10,176 bases of DNA from a virus (taxonomy: Duplodnaviria > Heunggongvirae > Uroviricota > Caudoviricetes), in the IMG/VR virus record IMGVR_UViG_2648501437_000009. One strand, 5' to 3'. Under the pieces are notes generated by a model that saw only the letters and a list, made by a program, of their open reading frames with translations, made no database searches and was not told the DNA's origin. Shown in pieces: positions 1,775 through 10,176 of this stretch. Position 1 is the first letter of the stretch; the number at the start of each line of letters is the position of its first letter. The position numbers and the translations under genes are program-made.

Positions 1775-2472
1775 TGCAGGACATACAACAGGAAACGCTG
1801 AATGAATGCATTCGTGCGGAGCAGTCGGCCAGCGTGGTGCTCTGGGAAATCGACCTGACCGAGGTAGGCGGGGATCGCTACTTTTTCTGCAATGAGCAGA
1901 ACGAAAAAGGAGAGTCTGTCACCTGGCAGAGTCGTCAGTATCAGGCCTATCCCATTCAGGGGAGTGGATTTGAGATGAACGGCAAAGGTGCCAGTGCAAG
2001 GCCAACGCTGAAAGTATCTAATCTACACGGCATGGTCACCGGGATGGTGGAGGATTTGCAGAGTCTGGTCGGCGGAACAGTGGTCCGGCGTAAGGTCTAC
2101 GCTCGTTTTCTGGATGCGGTGAACTTCATTAACGGAAACAGTGAAGCCGATCCGGAGCAGGAGGTGATCAGCCGCTGGTGCATCGAGCAGTGCAGCGAAC
2201 TGAACGCGGTTAGCGCGGCCTTTGTGCTGTCCACGCCGACGGAAACGGATGGTGCCGTTTTCCCGGGGCGTATCATGCTGGCTAATACCTGCACCTGGAC
2301 CTATCGCGGTGATGAGTGCGGTTATCACGGTCCGGCGGTCGCGGATGAATATGACCAGCCAACGTCCGATATCACGAAGGATAAATGCAGCAAATGCCTG
2401 AGTGGCTGTAAGTTTCGCAATAACGTCGGCAACTTTGGCGGCTTCCTTTCCATTAACAAACTTTCGCAGTGA
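1774..2472 (+). CDS. L: Tail tip assembly protein L (Fe-S cluster-binding)
   Basis: ORF 1774..2472, 232 aa. ATG overlaps the M stop (ATGA at 1772..1776). Protein MQDIQQETLNECIRAEQSASVVLWEIDL...CSKCLSGCKFRNNVGNFGGFLSINKLSQ appears near-identical to lambda gpL from memory, including the C-terminal cysteine cluster. Same length as lambda L. Confidence 0.95.
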   Translation: MQDIQQETLNECIRAEQSASVVLWEIDLTEVGGDRYFFCNEQNEKGESVTWQSRQYQAYPIQGSGFEMNGKGASARPTLKVSNLHGMVTGMVEDLQSLVGGTVVRRKVYARFLDAVNFINGNSEADPEQEVISRWCIEQCSELNAVSAAFVLSTPTETDGAVFPGRIMLANTCTWTYRGDECGYHGPAVADEYDQPTSDITKDKCSKCLSGCKFRNNVGNFGGFLSINKLSQ

Positions 2473-3221
2473 ATCCCATGACAGAGACAGAATCAGCGAT
2501 TCTGGCGCACGCCCGGCGATGTGCGCCAGCGGAGTCGTGCGGCTTCGTGGTGAGAACGCCGGAGGGAGAAAGATATTTTCCCTGCGTGAATATCTCCGGT
2601 GAGCCGGAGGCGTATTTCCGGATGTCGCCGGAGGACTGGCTGAGTGCAGAAATGCAGGGTGAGATTGTGGCGCTGGTGCACAGCCATCCCGGTGATCTGC
2701 CCTGGCTGAGTGAGGCCGACCGGCGACTGCAGGTGCAGAGTGATTTGCCGTGGTGGCTGGTCTGCCGGGGGGCGATTCATAAGTTCCGCTGTGTGCCGCA
2801 TCTCACCGGGCGGCGCTTTGAGCACGGGGTGACGGACTGTTACACGCTGTTCCGGGACGCTTACCATCTGGCGGGGATTGAGATGCCGGATTTTCATCGC
2901 GGGGATGACTGGTGGCGTAACGGTCAGAATCTCTATCTGGATAATCTGGAGGCCACGGGGCTGTATCAGGTGCCGTTGTCATCAGCACAACCGGGCGATG
3001 TGCTGTTGTGCTGTTTTGGTTCATCGGTGCCGAATCATGCCGCCATTTACTGTGGTGACGGCGAGCTGCTGCACCATATTCCTGAACAACTGAGCAAACG
3101 AGAGAGGTATACCGACAAATGGCAGCGACGCACACACTCCCTCTGGCGTCACCGGGCATGGCACGCATCTGCCTTTACGGGGATTTACAACGATTTGGCC
3201 GCCGCATCGACCTTCGAGTGA
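2469..3221 (+). CDS. K: Tail tip assembly protein K (JAMM/MPN-like plus NlpC/P60-like domains)
   Basis: ORF 2469..3221 (GTG overlapping the L stop; alternative ATG at 2478 giving MTETESAIL...). Contains a JAMM-type motif HSHPGDLPWLSEAD and a downstream Cys/His region (DCYTLF...HH) typical of NlpC/P60 papain-like folds, the architecture described for lambda gpK. The 3' end overlaps gene I by about 100 nt in a different frame. Confidence 0.88.
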   Translation: MNPMTETESAILAHARRCAPAESCGFVVRTPEGERYFPCVNISGEPEAYFRMSPEDWLSAEMQGEIVALVHSHPGDLPWLSEADRRLQVQSDLPWWLVCRGAIHKFRCVPHLTGRRFEHGVTDCYTLFRDAYHLAGIEMPDFHRGDDWWRNGQNLYLDNLEATGLYQVPLSSAQPGDVLLCCFGSSVPNHAAIYCGDGELLHHIPEQLSKRERYTDKWQRRTHSLWRHRAWHASAFTGIYNDLAAASTFE

Positions 3222-3760
3222 AAACGGGGTCCGAAGCCATCCGGGCGCTGGCCATGCAGATCCCGGCATTTCGTCAGAAACTGAGCGACGGCTGGTACCA
3301 GGTACGCATTGCCGGGCGTGATGCAGGTGAAACCGAATTGTCTGCCCGTCTTAATGAGCCGCTGGAAAATGGTGCCGTGATCCATATCGTGCCGCGTCTG
3401 GCAGGAGCCAAAAGTGGCGGTGTGTTTCAGGCTGTGCTGGGGGCGGCTGTTATGGCGGTTGCTATATGGATGCCGGGGGTAGGAATTATGGCGAGTAATC
3501 TGCTGTTTTCTCTCGGTGCCAGTATGACGCTTGGCGGTGTTGCACAGATGCTGGCCCCTAAACCCAAAACCCCCCGCACACAGACAACGGATAACGGCAA
3601 ACAGAATACCTATTTTTCTTCACTGGATAACATGGTTGCCCAGGGCAATGTTCTGCCGGTTCTGTACGGTGAAATGCGCGTGGGGTCACGCGTGGTTTCT
3701 CAGGAGATCAGCACGGCAGACGAAGGGGATGGTGGTCAGGTTGTGGTGATTGGTCGCTGA
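3119..3760 (+). CDS. I: Tail tip assembly protein I
   Basis: ORF 3119..3760, 213 aa. MAATHTLPLASPGMARICLYGDLQRFGRRIDLRVKTG... followed by a hydrophobic Gly/Ala-rich segment and C-terminal ...NVLPVLYGEMRVGSRVVSQEISTADEGDGGQVVVIGR; matches the gpI family. Positioned between K and J. Confidence 0.9.
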   Translation: MAATHTLPLASPGMARICLYGDLQRFGRRIDLRVKTGSEAIRALAMQIPAFRQKLSDGWYQVRIAGRDAGETELSARLNEPLENGAVIHIVPRLAGAKSGGVFQAVLGAAVMAVAIWMPGVGIMASNLLFSLGASMTLGGVAQMLAPKPKTPRTQTTDNGKQNTYFSSLDNMVAQGNVLPVLYGEMRVGSRVVSQEISTADEGDGGQVVVIGR

Positions 3761-3820: not shown

Positions 3821-4798
3821 ATGGGTAAAGGCAGCAGTAAGGGGCATACCCCGCGCGAAGCGAAGGACAACCTGAAGTCCACGCAGCTGCTGAGTGTGAT
3901 CGATGCCATCAGCGAAGGGCCGGTTGAAGGTCCGGTGGATGGATTAAAAAGCGTGCTGCTGAACAGTACGCCGGTGCTGGACAGTGAGGGGAATACCAAT
4001 ATATCCGGCGTCACGGTGGTGTTCCGGGCAGGTGAGCAGGAGCAGACACCGCCGGAGGGATTTGAATCCTCCGGCTCCGAGACGGTGCTGGGTACGGAAG
4101 TGAAATATGACACGCCGATAACCCGGACCATCACGTCGGCAAACATTGACCGTCTGCGCCTGACCTTCGGTGTGCAGGCACTGGTGGAAACCACCTCAAA
4201 GGGGGACAGGAATCCGTCGGAAGTCCGCCTGCTGGTTCAGATACAGCGTAATGGTGGCTGGGTGACGGAAAAAGACATCACCATTAAGGGCAAAACCACC
4301 TCGCAGTATCTGGCCTCGGTGGTGGTGGATAACCTGCCGCCGCGCCCGTTTAATATCCGGATGCGCAGAATGACGCCGGACAGCACCACAGACCAGCTGC
4401 AGAACAAAACGCTCTGGTCGTCATACACCGAAATCATCGATGTGAAACAGGGCTACCCGAACACGGCACTGGTCGGCGTACAGGTGGATTCGGAGCAGTT
4501 CGGCAGCCAGCAGGTGAGCCGTAATTATCATCTGCGCGGACGCATTCTGCAGGTGCCGTCGAACTACAACCCGCAAAAACGGCACATACAGCGGTATCTG
4601 GGACGGAACGTTAAAACCAGCATACAGCAACAACACGGCCTGGTGTCTGTGGGATATGCTGACCCACCCGCGCTACGGCATGGGGAAACGTCTTGGTGCA
4701 GCGGATGTGGACAAATGGGCGCTGTATGTCATCGGCCAGCACTGCGACCAGTCGGTGCCGGACGGCTCTGGCGGCACGGAGCCGCGCATCACCTGTAA
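3821..4798 (+). CDS. J: J fragment 1 (N-terminal); J-like sequence ends near 4576, rest of the ORF is out-of-frame read-through
   Basis: ORF 3821..4798. After ...LQVPSNYNPQ the translation (KRHIQRYLGRNVKTSIQQQH...) loses J-like character while the +1 frame continues J. Confidence 0.6.
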   Translation: MGKGSSKGHTPREAKDNLKSTQLLSVIDAISEGPVEGPVDGLKSVLLNSTPVLDSEGNTNISGVTVVFRAGEQEQTPPEGFESSGSETVLGTEVKYDTPITRTITSANIDRLRLTFGVQALVETTSKGDRNPSEVRLLVQIQRNGGWVTEKDITIKGKTTSQYLASVVVDNLPPRPFNIRMRRMTPDSTTDQLQNKTLWSSYTEIIDVKQGYPNTALVGVQVDSEQFGSQQVSRNYHLRGRILQVPSNYNPQKRHIQRYLGRNVKTSIQQQHGLVSVGYADPPALRHGETSWCSGCGQMGAVCHRPALRPVGAGRLWRHGAAHHL

Positions 4799-5474
4799 TG
4801 CGTACCTGACCACACAGCGCAAGGCGTGGGATGTGCTCAGTGATTTCTGCTCGGCGATGCGCTGTATGCCGGTATGGAACGGGCAGACGCTGACGTTCGT
4901 GCAGGACCGACCGTCGGATAAGGTGTGGACCTATAACCGCAGTAATGTGGTGATGCCGGATGATGGCGCGCCGTTCCGCTACAGCTTCAGCGCCCTGAAA
5001 GACCGCCATAATGCCGTTGAGGTGAACTGGATTGACCCGAATAACGGCTGGGAGACGGCGACAGAGCTTGTGGAGGATACGCAGGCCATTGCCCGTTACG
5101 GTCGTAACGTCACGAAGATGGATGCCTTTGGCTGTACCAGCCGGGGGCAGGCACACCGCGCCGGGCTGTGGCTGATTAAAACAGAACTGCTGGAAACGCA
5201 GACCGTGGACTTCAGCGTGGGTGCCGAAGGGCTTCGCCATGTACCGGGCGATGTCATTGAAATCTGTGATGATGACTATGCCGGTATCAGCACCGGCGGG
5301 CGCGTGCTGGCGGTAAACAGCCAGACCCGGACGCTGACGCTCGACCGTGAAATCACGCTGCCATCTTCCGGCACCACGCTGATAAGCCTGGTTGACGGGA
5401 AGTGGCAATCCGATCAGCGTGGAGGTTCAGTCCGTCACCGACGGCGTGAAGGTGAAAGTGAGCCGTGTTCCTGA
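4656..5474 (+). CDS. J: J fragment 2 (central); J-like reading frame actually begins near 4581 and ends near 5399
   Basis: ORF 4656..5474 from first ATG ([28 protein letters not shown]...). The same frame is open and J-like upstream from about 4581 (GTYSGIWDGTLKPAYSNNTAWCLWD). After ...LISLVDG the tail ([24 protein letters not shown]) is out-of-frame read-through. Confidence 0.6.
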
Positions 5475-7302
5475 CGGCGTTGCTGAATACAGCGTGTGGG
5501 GGCTGAAGCTGCCGACGTTGCGCCAGCGCCTGTTCCGCTGCGTGAGTATCCGTGAGAACGACGACGGCACGTATGCCATCACCGCCGTGCAGCATGTGCC
5601 GGAAAAAGAGGCCATCGTGGATAACGGGGCGCACTTTGACGGCGACCAGAGCGGCACGGTGAATGGTGTCACGCCGCCAGCGGTGCAGCACCTGACCGCA
5701 GAAGTCACCGCAGACAGCGGGGAATATCAGGTGCTGGCGCGCTGGGACACGCCGAAGGTGGTGAAGGGCGTGAGCTTCATGCTTCGCCTGACCGTGGCAG
5801 CGGACGACGGCAGTGAGCGGCTGGTCAGCACGGCCCGGACGACGGAAACCACATACCGCTTCACGCAACTGGCGCTGGGGAACTACAGGCTGACAGTCCG
5901 GGCGGTAAATGCGTGGGGGCAGCAGGGCGATCCGGCGTCGGTATCGTTCCGGATTGCCGCACCGGCAGCACCGTCGCGGATTGAGCTGACGCCGGGCTAT
6001 TTTCAGATAACCGCAACGCCGCATCTTGCCGTTTATGATCCGACGGTACAGTTTGAGTTCTGGTTCTCGGAAAAGCGGATTACCGATATCAGGCAGGTTG
6101 AAACCACAGCCCGCTATCTTGGTACGGCGCTGTACTGGATAGCTGCCAGTATCAATATCAGGCCGGGCCATGATTATTATTTTTATATCCGCAGTGTGAA
6201 TACCGTTGGCAAATCGGCATTCGTGGAGGCTGTTGGTCAGCCGAGTGATGATGCATCCGGTTATCTGGATTTTTTCAAAGGCGAGATAGGGAAAACCCAT
6301 CTGGCTCATGAGCTGTGGACGCAGATTGATAACGGTCAGCTTGCGCCTGACCTGGCTGAAATCAGGACGTCCATTACGGATGTCAGCAATGAAATCACGC
6401 AGACCGTCAATAAGAAACTGGAAGACCAGAGTGCGGCAATTCAGCAGATACAGAAGGTTCAGGTTGATACAAATAATAACCTGAACAGCATGTGGGCTGT
6501 GAAGCTGCAGCAGATGCAGGACGGACGCCTTTATATCGCGGGTATTGGTGCCGGTATTGAGAACACCCCTGACGGCATGCAGAGTCAGGTGCTGCTGGCG
6601 GCGGACAGGATTGCGATGATTAATCCTGCGAATGGCAACACAAAACCGATGTTTGTTGGTCAGGGCGATCAGATATTCATGAACGAAGTGTTCCTGAAAT
6701 ATCTGACGGCTCCCACCATTACCAGCGGCGGTAATCCTCCGACATTTTCCCTGACACCGGACGGGCGGCTGACGGCGAAAAATGCCGATATCAGCGGTAA
6801 CGTGAATGCGAACTCCGGGACGCTCAATAATGTCACGATTAACCAGAACTGTCGGATTATGGGAAAGCTGTCTGTCAACCAGATTGAAGGCGATATTGTC
6901 AAAACAGTGGGTAAGGCTTTCCCGCGGGACTCCCGGGCACCGGAGCGGTGGCCATCAGGGACCATTACCGTCAGGATTTATGACGATCAGCCGTTTGACC
7001 GGCAGATTGTTATTCCGGCGGTGGCATTCAGCGGCGCTAAACATGAGAGAGAGCATACTGATATTTACTCCTCATGCCGTCTGATAGTGCGGAAAAACGG
7101 TGCTGAAATTTATAACCGTACCGCGCTGGATAATACGCTGATTTACAGTGGCGTTATTGATATGCCTGCCGGTCACGGTCACATGACGCTGGAGTTTTCG
7201 GTATCAGCATGGCTGGTGAATGACTGGTATCCCACAGCAAGTATCAGCGATTTGCTGGTTGTGGTGATGAAGAAAGCCACCGCAGGCATCAGTATCAGTT
7301 GA
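5392..7302 (+). CDS. J: J fragment 3 (C-terminal, includes the presumed receptor-binding region)
   Basis: ORF 5392..7302 (TTG at 5392 is an ORF-caller start; J frame resumes at about 5401 with [26 protein letters not shown]). 636 codons uninterrupted to the stop at 7300..7302. Confidence 0.65.
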
Positions 7303-7321
7303 ATTTTATAACCCAAATACG

Positions 7322-7346
7322 GGCGCCAGAAATGGCGCCTTTTTTA
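7322..7346 (+). terminator. Rho-independent terminator downstream of J
   Basis: GGCGCCA (7322..7328) - GAAA loop - TGGCGCC (7333..7339), a perfect 7-bp GC-rich stem with a GNRA-type tetraloop, followed immediately by TTTTTTATT (7340..7348). Lies 20 nt after the J stop. Confidence 0.8.
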
Positions 7347-7369
7347 TTGCAGAAAAGCGAGAGGTAATT

Positions 7370-7969
7370 ATGCGTAAATTATGTGCTGTTATTCTGTCTG
7401 CAGTAGTCTGGCTGGTCGCCGCTGGTACGCCAGCGAGTGCAGCAGAGCATCAGTCCACACTAAGCGCCGGGTATCTTCAGACCCATACTGATATGCCAGG
7501 CAGCGATGACCTGAAGGGCATTAACGTGAAATACCGTTATGAGTTTACGGACACGCTGGGGCTGATTACGTCATTCAGTTATGCCAATGCTGAAGATGAG
7601 CAAAAAACGCATTACAGCGATACCCGCTGGCATGAAGATTCCGTGCGTAACCGCTGGTTCAGCGTGATGGCGGGGCCGTCTGTGCGCGTGAATGAATGGT
7701 TCAGCGCGTATGCGATGGCGGGTATGGCTTACAGCCGTGTGTCGACTTTCTCCGGGGATTATCTGCACGTAACCGACAACAAGGGGAAAACGCACGATGT
7801 GCTGACCGGAAGTGATGACGGTCGCCACAGCAACACGTCTCTGGCGTGGGGAGCTGGCGTGCAGTTTAACCCGACCGAATCCGTGGCCATTGATATTGCT
7901 TATGAAGGTTCCGGCAGTGGCGACTGGCGTACTGACGGTTTCATCGTGGGTGTCGGTTATAAATTCTGA
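7370..7969 (+). CDS. lom: Lom outer-membrane protein (Ail/Lom/PagC/OmpX family beta-barrel); lysogenic-conversion moron
   Basis: ORF 7370..7969, 199 aa. RBS GAGAGG at about 7357..7362. N-terminal signal peptide MRKLCAVILSAVVWLVAAGTPASA-AEH. C-terminus ...VAIDIAYEGSGSGDWRTDGFIVGVGYKF ends in aromatic F, typical of OM beta-barrels, and matches the lambda Lom C-terminus as I recall it. Position after J matches lambda. Confidence 0.9.
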   Translation: MRKLCAVILSAVVWLVAAGTPASAAEHQSTLSAGYLQTHTDMPGSDDLKGINVKYRYEFTDTLGLITSFSYANAEDEQKTHYSDTRWHEDSVRNRWFSVMAGPSVRVNEWFSAYAMAGMAYSRVSTFSGDYLHVTDNKGKTHDVLTGSDDGRHSNTSLAWGAGVQFNPTESVAIDIAYEGSGSGDWRTDGFIVGVGYKF

Positions 7970-7995: not shown

Positions 7996-8022
7996 AGCCC
8001 GCAGATTCTGGCGGGCTTTTTT
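7996..8022 (+). terminator. Rho-independent terminator downstream of lom
   Basis: AGCCCGC (7996..8002) - 8-nt loop - GCGGGCT (8011..8017), followed by a T-run (8017..8022). Lies 27 nt after the lom stop and 12 nt before the stf ATG. Confidence 0.75.
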
Positions 8023-8033
8023 GTGGGGTGAAT

Positions 8034-10176
8034 ATGGCAGTAAAGATTTCAGGTGTACTGAAAGACGGTGCAGGTAAACCGATACAGAACTGCACAATCC
8101 AGCTGAAAGCAAAACGTAACAGCACCACGGTGGTGGTGAACACGGTGGCCTCAGAAAATCCGGATGAAGCCGGGCGTTACAGCATGGACGTTGAGTACGG
8201 TCAGTACAGCGTTATTCTGTTGGTGGAGGGATTCCCGCCGTCACATGCCGGGACCATCACCGTGTATGAAGACTCCCAACCCGGTACGCTGAATGATTTT
8301 CTTGGTGCCATGACGGAGGATGATGCCCGTCCGGAGGCACTGCGCCGTTTTGAACTGATGGTGGAAGAGGTGGCGCGTAACGCGTCCGCAGTGGCACAGA
8401 ACACGGCAGCCGCGAAGAAGTCAGCCAGCGATGCCGGCACATCAGCCCGTGAGGCGGCAACTCATGCAACCGATGCTGCAGGCTCAGCACGTGCCGCCAG
8501 CACGTCAGCCGGACAGGCCGCGTCGTCGGCTCAGTCAGCATCTTCCAGCGCAGGAACGGCATCAACAAAGGCCACTGAAGCATCAAAAAGTGCTGCCGCT
8601 GCAGAGTCTTCAAAAAGCGCGGCTGCCACCAGTGCCGGTGCCGCGTCAACAAGTGCCGGGCAGGCCTCAGCCAGTGCCACCGCCGCCGGAAAATCGGCAG
8701 AAAGCGCCGCCTCGTCCGCTTCAACAGCCACAACGAAGGCTGGCGAAGCCACTGAACAGGCCAGCGCAGCAGCGAGGTCTGCTTCCGCAGCGAAGACATC
8801 TGAGACGAATGCGAAAGCGTCGGAAACCCGTGCAGAATCCTCAAAAACGGCAGCCGCATCGTCCGCCAGTTCGGCGGCGTCATCGGCATCATCTGCGTCT
8901 GCTTCAAAAGATGAGGCGACCAGACAGGCGTCAGCAGCAAAGGGCAGCGCCACGACGGCATCCACGAAGGCGACAGAGGCAGCTGGCAGTGCGACGGCGG
9001 CAGCTCAGAGCAAAAGTACGGCGGAATCCGCGGCAACGCGCGCCGAGACAGCGGCAAAACGGGCAGAGGATATTGCATCCGCCGTGGCGCTTGAGGATGC
9101 AAGTACGACGAAAAAGGGGATAGTACAGCTCAGCAGTGCGACCAACAGCACTTCCGAGTCACTGGCGGCAACGCCAAAGGCAGTAAAAGCAGCCAATGAC
9201 AATGCTGAGAAACGTCTGCAGAAAGATCAGAACGGTGCGGATATCCCTGGCAAAGACACCTTTACGAAAAATATTGGTGCCTGCCGTGCCTTCGGTGGGT
9301 CAGTAAGCACAACAACAGGAAACTGGACGACTGCACAGTTTATCGAGTGGCTGGATTCTCAGGGAGCATTTAACCATCCATACTGGATGTGCAAGGGTTC
9401 CTGGTCTTATGGCAATAATAAAATCATTACTGATACTGGCTGCGGTAATATTCATCTCGCCGGAGCTGTCATTGAAGTAATGGGGATAAAGTCAGCGATG
9501 ACGATCCGCATTACCACACCGACCACCTCCACTGGTGGTGGAACAACTAACGCCCAGTTTACCTATATTAATCACGGAACAGATTATTCACCTGGCTGGC
9601 GAAGGGACTATAACTCCAGAAATAAGCCAACGGCATCAGAGATCGGGGCGTTACCGTCAGGTGGAACAGCAGTATCATCAGTTAATTTGTCTTCAAAAGG
9701 TCGGGTAACCGCGCTGACAGACAATACGCAGGGGGCAACAGGTCTTGAGTTATACGAGGTGTATAACAACGGATATCCAACAGCGTATGGAAATATCATT
9801 CACCTGAAAGGGATGACAGCCGTTGGCGAAGGTGAGTTACTCATCGGCTGGAGTGGTACAAGCGGTGCTCATGCTCCGGCATTTATTCGTTCACGACGGG
9901 ATACGACCGACGCAAACTGGTCGCCGTGGGCGCAGCTTTACACCTCGGCTCATCCTCCTGCAGAGTTTTATCCAGTCGGTGCACCAATCCCGTGGCCATC
10001 AGATACCGTTCCGTCTGGTTATGCCCTGATGCAGGGGCAGACTTTTGACAAATCTGCTTACCCGAAACTTGCAGTTGCTTATCCGTCAGGCGTTATTCCT
10101 GATATGCGTGGCTGGACGATTAAGGGCAAGCCCGGCAGTGGTCGTGCCGTATTGTCTCAGGAACAGGACGGCATTA
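8034..10176 (+). CDS. stf: Side tail fibre protein Stf (partial, 3' end beyond window)
   Basis: ATG at 8034 with GGGGTG upstream. I translated the frame by hand: open to the window end with no stop (missing from the ORF track because there is no stop in-window). N-terminus [60 protein letters not shown] matches the lambda Stf N-terminus from memory. Followed by a long Ala/Ser-rich tract, the [26 protein letters not shown] motif, and a distal [37 protein letters not shown] motif typical of enterobacterial phage tail-fibre C-terminal regions. Confidence 0.9.
8380..9080 (+). repeat. Degenerate Ala/Ser/Thr-rich low-complexity repeat tract within stf (fibre shaft)
   Basis: About 230 codons dominated by A, S, T, K, E in recurring short units (e.g. 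SAxSAxxASxSA, [21 protein letters not shown]). GC-rich and stop-poor in several frames on both strands, which generates the long overlapping shadow ORFs 8257..9102(-), 8531..8965(-) and 8431..9123(+). Confidence 0.6.

Follow-up and report, generated by a model that had tools for sequence, protein, structure and literature searches.

Introduction

The tail tip of phage lambda is formed and closed by trimeric J, the C-terminal part of which builds the central fibre. Three elements make up this part in the lambda structure paper: the beta-prism fibre, a helical shaft at lambda residues 809-861 and, at the C-terminus, an Ig-like domain that binds the receptor, a trimeric porin of the outer membrane. 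On docking, loops of the receptor-binding domains enter the porin trimer, whereupon the bases of these domains spread apart and the prism is twisted; the shaft flips, the FNIII strings dissociate and the hub opens for DNA ejection. Lambda itself binds LamB. The homologous J of phage 434 is reported in the same paper to use OmpC.

In the study of Maddamsetti et al. (2018), which covered 1207 natural homologues, J residues 960-1132 were described as an independently recombining 'specificity region'. The closely related lambdoid phages of that study include Stx2a_WGPS2.

The J C-termini of natural E. coli prophages were fused to lambda gpJ at residue 964 by Brödel et al. (Nature 2024, PMC11338833). 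The chimeras were screened on a lamB deletion strain and ompC was complemented in trans. Two of them, A8 and 1A2, depend on OmpC: A8 works on the MG1655 and EDL933 OmpC, and 1A2 on the EDL933 variant but not on that of MG1655. Together, A8 and 1A2 cover 21 of the 23 natural OmpC variants tested. Both working chimeras retain the shaft and the prism of lambda.

In the present work, the J gene of a window of 10,176 bp, which is the whole contig JHSO01000113.1 of the draft assembly GCA_001266005.1, was compared with these proteins. An earlier sequence-only reading of the window had drawn attention to the C-terminal part of J.

Results

Gene order and composition of the window

The genes of the window follow the lambda order, H-M-L-K-I-J-lom-stf, and J is found at its usual position in the tail module (Table 1). 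Between 1752 and 6319 the nucleotide identity with lambda is 91.8% (blastn).

Table 1. Coordinates of the genes, of the J domains and of the two frameshifts in the window. The limits of the shaft were taken from the lambda structure paper; residue numbers refer to J after repair of the reading frame unless lambda is named.
Feature	Position (nt)	Strand	Description
H (tape measure), 3' part	25-1443
M	1436-1774
L	1774-2472
K	~2469-3221
I	~3119-3760
J (tip attachment / central tail fibre)	3821..7302	+	three frames as assembled; repaired product 1159 aa
lambda-like part of J (hub domains and two FNIII/Ig domains)	3821..6246	+	96.9% aa identity, lambda J residues 1-808
frameshift 1	4581..4585	+	GGCAC, one surplus base; window CGGCACATAC
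frameshift 2	5397..5399	+	GGG; GG in lambda, L002 and all complete E. coli genomes
alpha-helical shaft	6247..6486	+	residues 809-888 (lambda 809-861); 28% identical, 27 aa longer
beta-prism central straight fibre	6487..6795	+	residues 889-991; 71% identical to lambda
C-terminal specificity region	6796..7299	+	residues 992-1159; holds the Ig-like receptor-binding domain
lom-family outer-membrane protein gene	7370..7969	+	Pfam Ail_Lom; 45% aa identity with lambda Lom
side tail fibre gene (stf)	8034 to window end (10176)		first 714 codons

Lambda-like DNA begins abruptly at 1752, near the junction of M and L. The preceding segment (1-1751), containing the C-terminal part of H and M, has a GC content of 0.40-0.46 and no blastn match to lambda; its best phage match was Salmonella phage SPF_0923. 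Terminator-like GC hairpins followed by T runs were detected at 7321-7350 on the plus strand, between J and lom, and at 7996-8027, just past lom. The stf ORF is intact up to the contig end, where it runs off, and has only patchy similarity (79-86%) to lambda stf. The long Ala/Ser/Thr-rich repeat region of stf accounts for the high GC and strong AT skew observed at 8250-9150, and also for long ORFs in the other frames, which are spurious. The contig starts inside H and stops inside stf, which is typical of contigs that break off in repeats common to several lambdoid prophages. With such ends, artefacts of consensus or collapse are a concern in this contig.

Reading frame of J

J was found to be split over three frames, with ORFs at 3821-4798, 4656-5474 and 5392-7302. 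The alignment with lambda J located two insertions of one base (+1) each, designated frameshifts 1 and 2. Deletion of one base per frameshift resulted in a product of 1159 aa with no internal stops. The uninterrupted ORF of about 1130-1160 codons that is characteristic of a lambda-type gpJ is absent from the contig, and full-length J cannot be made from the gene as assembled. The sequence-only reading did not contain this split; its statement that J tracks lambda up to about residue 800 holds true, but only once the two frameshift bases are removed.

At the site of frameshift 1 the lambda sequence is CGGCA-ATAC and that of an intact E. coli allele (strain PK8241) is C-GCACATAC; the window holds both of the bases that appear as extra in the alignment of lambda with the PK8241 allele. 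The same frameshift was detected in one other IMG/VR contig, L002 (UViG_2648501437_000007), which is without frameshift 2. The J of L002 differs from that of the window at 135 other positions, with 95 synonymous and 29 non-synonymous codon differences. Neither frameshift was found in any of the 5426 complete E. coli genomes. Frameshift 1 had no match in the GTDB representative genomes or the metagenome contigs, and frameshift 2 had no other match in IMG/VR. The mostly synonymous differences from L002 and the stop-free repaired ORF are unlike those of a long-dead pseudogene.

Programmed -1 frameshifting at CAAAAAC was rejected, as the insertion requires a +1 correction. A switch between two alleles in a k-mer graph was likewise rejected as the origin of frameshift 1, because the indel columns are only 3 nt apart. 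A possible source of frameshift 1 is a column-wise consensus over collapsed copies of J.

Position and extent of the divergent block

J (3821-7302) was aligned with lambda J and the nucleotide identity was calculated in bins of 90 nt. The bins up to 6250 were 89-100% identical. Past this position the identity dropped to 54%, 28% and 49%, was 64-87% at 6521-6790 and 51-56% over the last 400 nt. The maximum-likelihood changepoint was determined to be at 6231, with identities of 95.8% before and 58.8% after it (Fisher p ~2e-159), and the lambda blastn match ends at 6319. The plot of identity against lambda J, which the sequence-only reading had suggested for locating the breakpoint, thereby placed it at about 6231-6319. 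The peptides quoted in that reading from the C-terminal part were found in the plus-strand ORF ending at 7302, so the location was right. The proposed divergence of the last ~330 residues was also confirmed: the repaired protein is 48% identical to lambda J over residues 821-1159, and a high identity was not seen in this part.

The non-lambda DNA takes in the spacer behind J and the greater part of lom and ends at about 7841; lambda-like DNA resumes at 7842 with 85.7% identity. Since the divergence runs on past the J stop codon, the mosaic unit comprises about 1.6 kb (~6231/6319 to 7841), i.e. the 3' end of J and lom. The block is flanked by DNA with ~86-92% identity to lambda. The J C-terminus and lom have the appearance of one mosaic cassette.

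A decrease in GC had been taken as a sign of the swap. The decrease is present, from 0.66 at 5701-6000 to 0.48 at 6001-6450 (about 0.48-0.50), but it is invalid as evidence of an exchange. It starts at ~6000-6100, about 200 nt upstream of the identity break and within sequence ~90% identical to lambda, and the GC of lambda J drops alike at the corresponding place, from 0.62-0.65 to 0.50.

Domain anatomy of J

Six Pfam families were detected in the repaired J, all above the cut-off: Phage-tail_3, FNIII-A_GpJ, Ig_J, Ig_J_second, Phage_Tail_Tip and Ig_GpJ_C. The J fragments called in the contig carry the same families. The domain set is that of a lambda-type gpJ, with FNIII-A, the Phage-tail_3 hub, two Ig/FNIII domains, the tail-tip fibre and the C-terminal Ig domain. 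The limits of Ig_J_second, Phage_Tail_Tip and Ig_GpJ_C were residues 716-818, 872-1000 and 1029-1159 (nt 6907-7299 for the last), respectively. From the Pfam limits and those of the lambda structure, the identity break lies where the second FNIII/Ig domain passes into the shaft. Along the divergent part the identity with lambda is uneven (shaft 28%, beta-prism 71%, last 168 aa 46%). The beta-prism holds a conserved stretch that serves as the graft junction in engineered gpJ chimeras.

Among the solved structures, the best sequence match was 9wca, 'A8 gpJ 713' (E=1e-120), and lambda gpJ (8xcj/8iyk) matched with E=1e-99 to 1e-100. The literature search for a paper on 9wca gave the lambda structure paper as the sole result. 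The matches to solved gpJ structures and the Pfam domains settle the fold. As judged from these comparisons, the divergent part is a homologous allele of the same module in which all the lambda J domains are kept and no foreign domain is seen. Compared with lambda gpJ (P03749; 8iyk, 8xcj), the window protein agrees in gene order, domain architecture and residues 1-808 (97%), and differs in the shaft and in the receptor-binding domain, where the identity is 41-46%.

Comparison with J proteins of known receptor

The comparison of the C-terminus with J proteins of known receptor had been proposed in the sequence-only reading. Over the last 168 aa (residues 992-1159) the identity was at least 90% with gpJ 1A2, 62% with gpJ A8, 47% with phage 434 J, which belongs to a different allele class, and 46% with lambda J. 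In the frame-tolerant comparison with the 1A2 graft, at least 152 of the 168 residues were identical and the junction motif was the same, placing the window domain in near identity with the 1A2-type OmpC module. The 1A2 gene is codon-recoded and was taken from the machine-read PDF of the supplement, which contains errors; 16 of the 168 positions are ambiguous, several of them being reading errors. About 8 of the 168 positions look like true substitutions, e.g. Q/E, IM/VL, V/A, R/K and D/N near the C-terminal loop, and the OmpC variant which is bound could be altered by any one of them.

Against the LamB-binding domain of lambda (lambda residues 965-1132), 45.6% of the last 168 aa were identical, and 41% within Ig_GpJ_C; a gap was located near lambda residue 1107. 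The window domain has the same C-terminal motif as gpJ A8 (9wca/9wcb), from which it differs by two indels and an identity of 61.6%; it is a related allele, different from A8, and A8 accepts the MG1655 OmpC that 1A2 does not.

Owing to the near identity with 1A2, a tested protein, an intact protein with the C-terminus of the window is expected to use OmpC instead of LamB, probably with selectivity among OmpC variants. gpJ 1A2 consists of lambda gpJ 1-964 and a natural prophage C-terminus and is intact, whereas the window J is frameshifted; 1A2 also has the shaft and the prism of lambda, in contrast to the divergent, 27 aa longer shaft of the window. As the working 1A2 and A8 chimeras keep the lambda shaft and prism, receptor switching does not require the longer shaft. 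Phage 434 and A8, at 47% and 62% identity, both use OmpC, and the receptor therefore does not map simply onto the sequence class. The different receptor predicted earlier is supported for the allele type, which would use OmpC as 1A2 does. That it is the receptor 'for this phage' does not follow, since J is frameshifted as assembled.

Frequency and spread of the C-terminal allele

The allele of the window was found in 2850 of the 5426 complete E. coli genomes, and the lambda C-terminus (last 939 nt) in 95 of them, both at a query coverage of at least 80%. The five top matches listed for the lambda C-terminus were laboratory strains, four of which are of DE3 or BL21 type. By these counts the window allele is common among E. 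coli prophages, including O157 Stx and PPompW phages, and the lambda allele is rare. The C-terminus had been described as swapped relative to lambda; a different allele it is, but the polarity has to be reversed, because with a rare LamB-type C-terminus in lambda a difference from lambda is the expected state.

The 1053-nt segment 6250-7302 had matches in 144 phage records. The nucleotide identity was 96.7% with PhiR55_1, about 94.7% with the VT1-Sakai and O157 PPompW prophages (94.5-96.7% overall) and 82% with JLK-2012. Over the last 168 aa, PhiR55_1, PPompW, Stx2a_WGPS2 and JLK-2012 were 94.6-97% identical to the window. With these 168 aa as the query, the phage J proteins fell into three classes. 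The first (88-97%) contains the window allele, PhiR55_1, Stx2a phages, JLK-2012 and PPompW; the second (60-68%) phage 21, BP-4795 and Stx2 1717; and the third (43-47%) lambda, 434, mEp460 and Ayreon. The O157/STEC and ECOR-derived lambdoid phages PhiR55_1, VT1-Sakai, PPompW, Stx2a_WGPS2 and JLK-2012 share the complete C-terminal module with the window. A J or host specificity gene is annotated over the match in PhiR55_1, VT1-Sakai, PPompW and JLK-2012, and a 'tail fiber protein' in Stx2a_WGPS2. Receptor experiments on these five phages were not found in the searched literature.

The J of MW057783.1 (Campylobacter phage CJLB-4, 48,361 bp) was 46.4% identical to the query, equal to the lambda records listed alongside, which suggests that a sequence resembling lambda was deposited as that of a Campylobacter phage.

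Discussion

The 3' third of this lambda-type J is probably a common OmpC-type fibre allele, standing on conserved residues 1-808 and acquired as a recombined block, in a copy that is frameshifted as assembled. Homologous recombination would have brought in the mosaic block of about 1.6 kb together with a different lom. Recombination is indicated by the sharp changepoint at a domain boundary, the extension of the block into lom and the occurrence of the same module across other phages; the Stx2a_WGPS2 domain is 95% identical to that of the window. It is very unlikely that J diverged in place, through rapid diversifying selection and without recombination of a module. In favour of this reading, the specificity region is under diversifying selection in nature (Maddamsetti et al. 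2018) and the beta-prism core has stayed 71% identical to lambda. Nevertheless, nucleotide identity changes abruptly, from 96% to 59%, the divergence spans a non-coding spacer and lom before the identity returns to ~86%, and the identical complete module is present in many otherwise different phages. In addition, the J body and the specificity region give incongruent phylogenies (Maddamsetti et al. 2018). With the recombined OmpC-type module, the machinery described for lambda would operate in the same way, and the porin would be OmpC. Any other receptor, be it LamB, OmpF or something else, is unlikely. The approximately 8 true substitutions relative to 1A2 and the poor tracking of sequence class by the receptor, as in phage 434 and A8, leave some room for it, and OmpF can be gained as an additional receptor through small changes in lambda J (lambda structure paper; Maddamsetti et al. 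2018). It is opposed by the identity of at least 90%, probably ~95%, to a domain which works through OmpC in a lamB deletion background, by the identity of only 46% to the LamB-binding domain of lambda, and by the many natural OmpC variants recognised by 1A2 (PMC11338833).

The two frameshifts are either real mutations or errors of the draft assembly; accordingly, either the prophage cannot make a tail tip or the contig has errors. We give somewhat less than an even chance to both being sequencing or assembly errors, with the true J intact and a functional tail tip of OmpC type made by the prophage. In the draft assembly the window is a complete contig, which ends within repeated phage genes, and its repaired J is free of stops and separated from that of L002 by mostly synonymous differences. 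Frameshift 2 is an extension of a GG run to GGG found nowhere else, and frameshift 1 resembles the union of two compensating indels that separate two intact alleles, which a consensus of collapsed copies could yield. The lack of either frameshift in the 5426 complete genomes, and of frameshift 1 in the GTDB representatives and the metagenomes, points in the same direction. On the other hand, frameshift 1 recurs in the independent contig L002, which argues that it is real, given the 135 other J positions at which L002 differs; moreover, it does not lie in a long homopolymer, and the intact state of the other genes (H, M, L, K, I, lom and stf) refers to a low overall error rate. The intact repaired frame, the pattern of purifying selection and the extreme rarity together indicate either a lesion that arose very recently and spread by gene conversion or an artefact from the assembly of several co-resident J copies. 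It is extremely improbable that frameshift 1 is a real persisting allele, with J under selection despite the break through +1 recoding or separate use of the 3' ORF. Continued selection would be suggested by the presence of frameshift 1 in two J genes that differ at 135 sites, mostly synonymously. The recoding would proceed by a rare +1 event at AAA-CGG-CAC. By the other route, the 3' ORF of 627-636 codons (5392/5419-7302), containing the fibre and the receptor-binding domain, would be used separately, and gene conversion between co-resident prophages would spread the broken patch.

The different C-terminus of J is real and was correctly located, but it is ordinary and already known, and its importance beyond correct annotation is slight. 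Exchange at the J specificity region is a textbook case of mosaicism in lambdoid phages (Maddamsetti et al. 2018). The receptor switch by a 1A2-type module has also been published, the module having already served to direct lambda particles to OmpC (Brödel et al. 2024, PMC11338833). Before any host range is inferred, the annotation of this contig should mark J as disrupted, or else the assembly should be checked. The receptor to be predicted for the prophage would be OmpC, not LamB.
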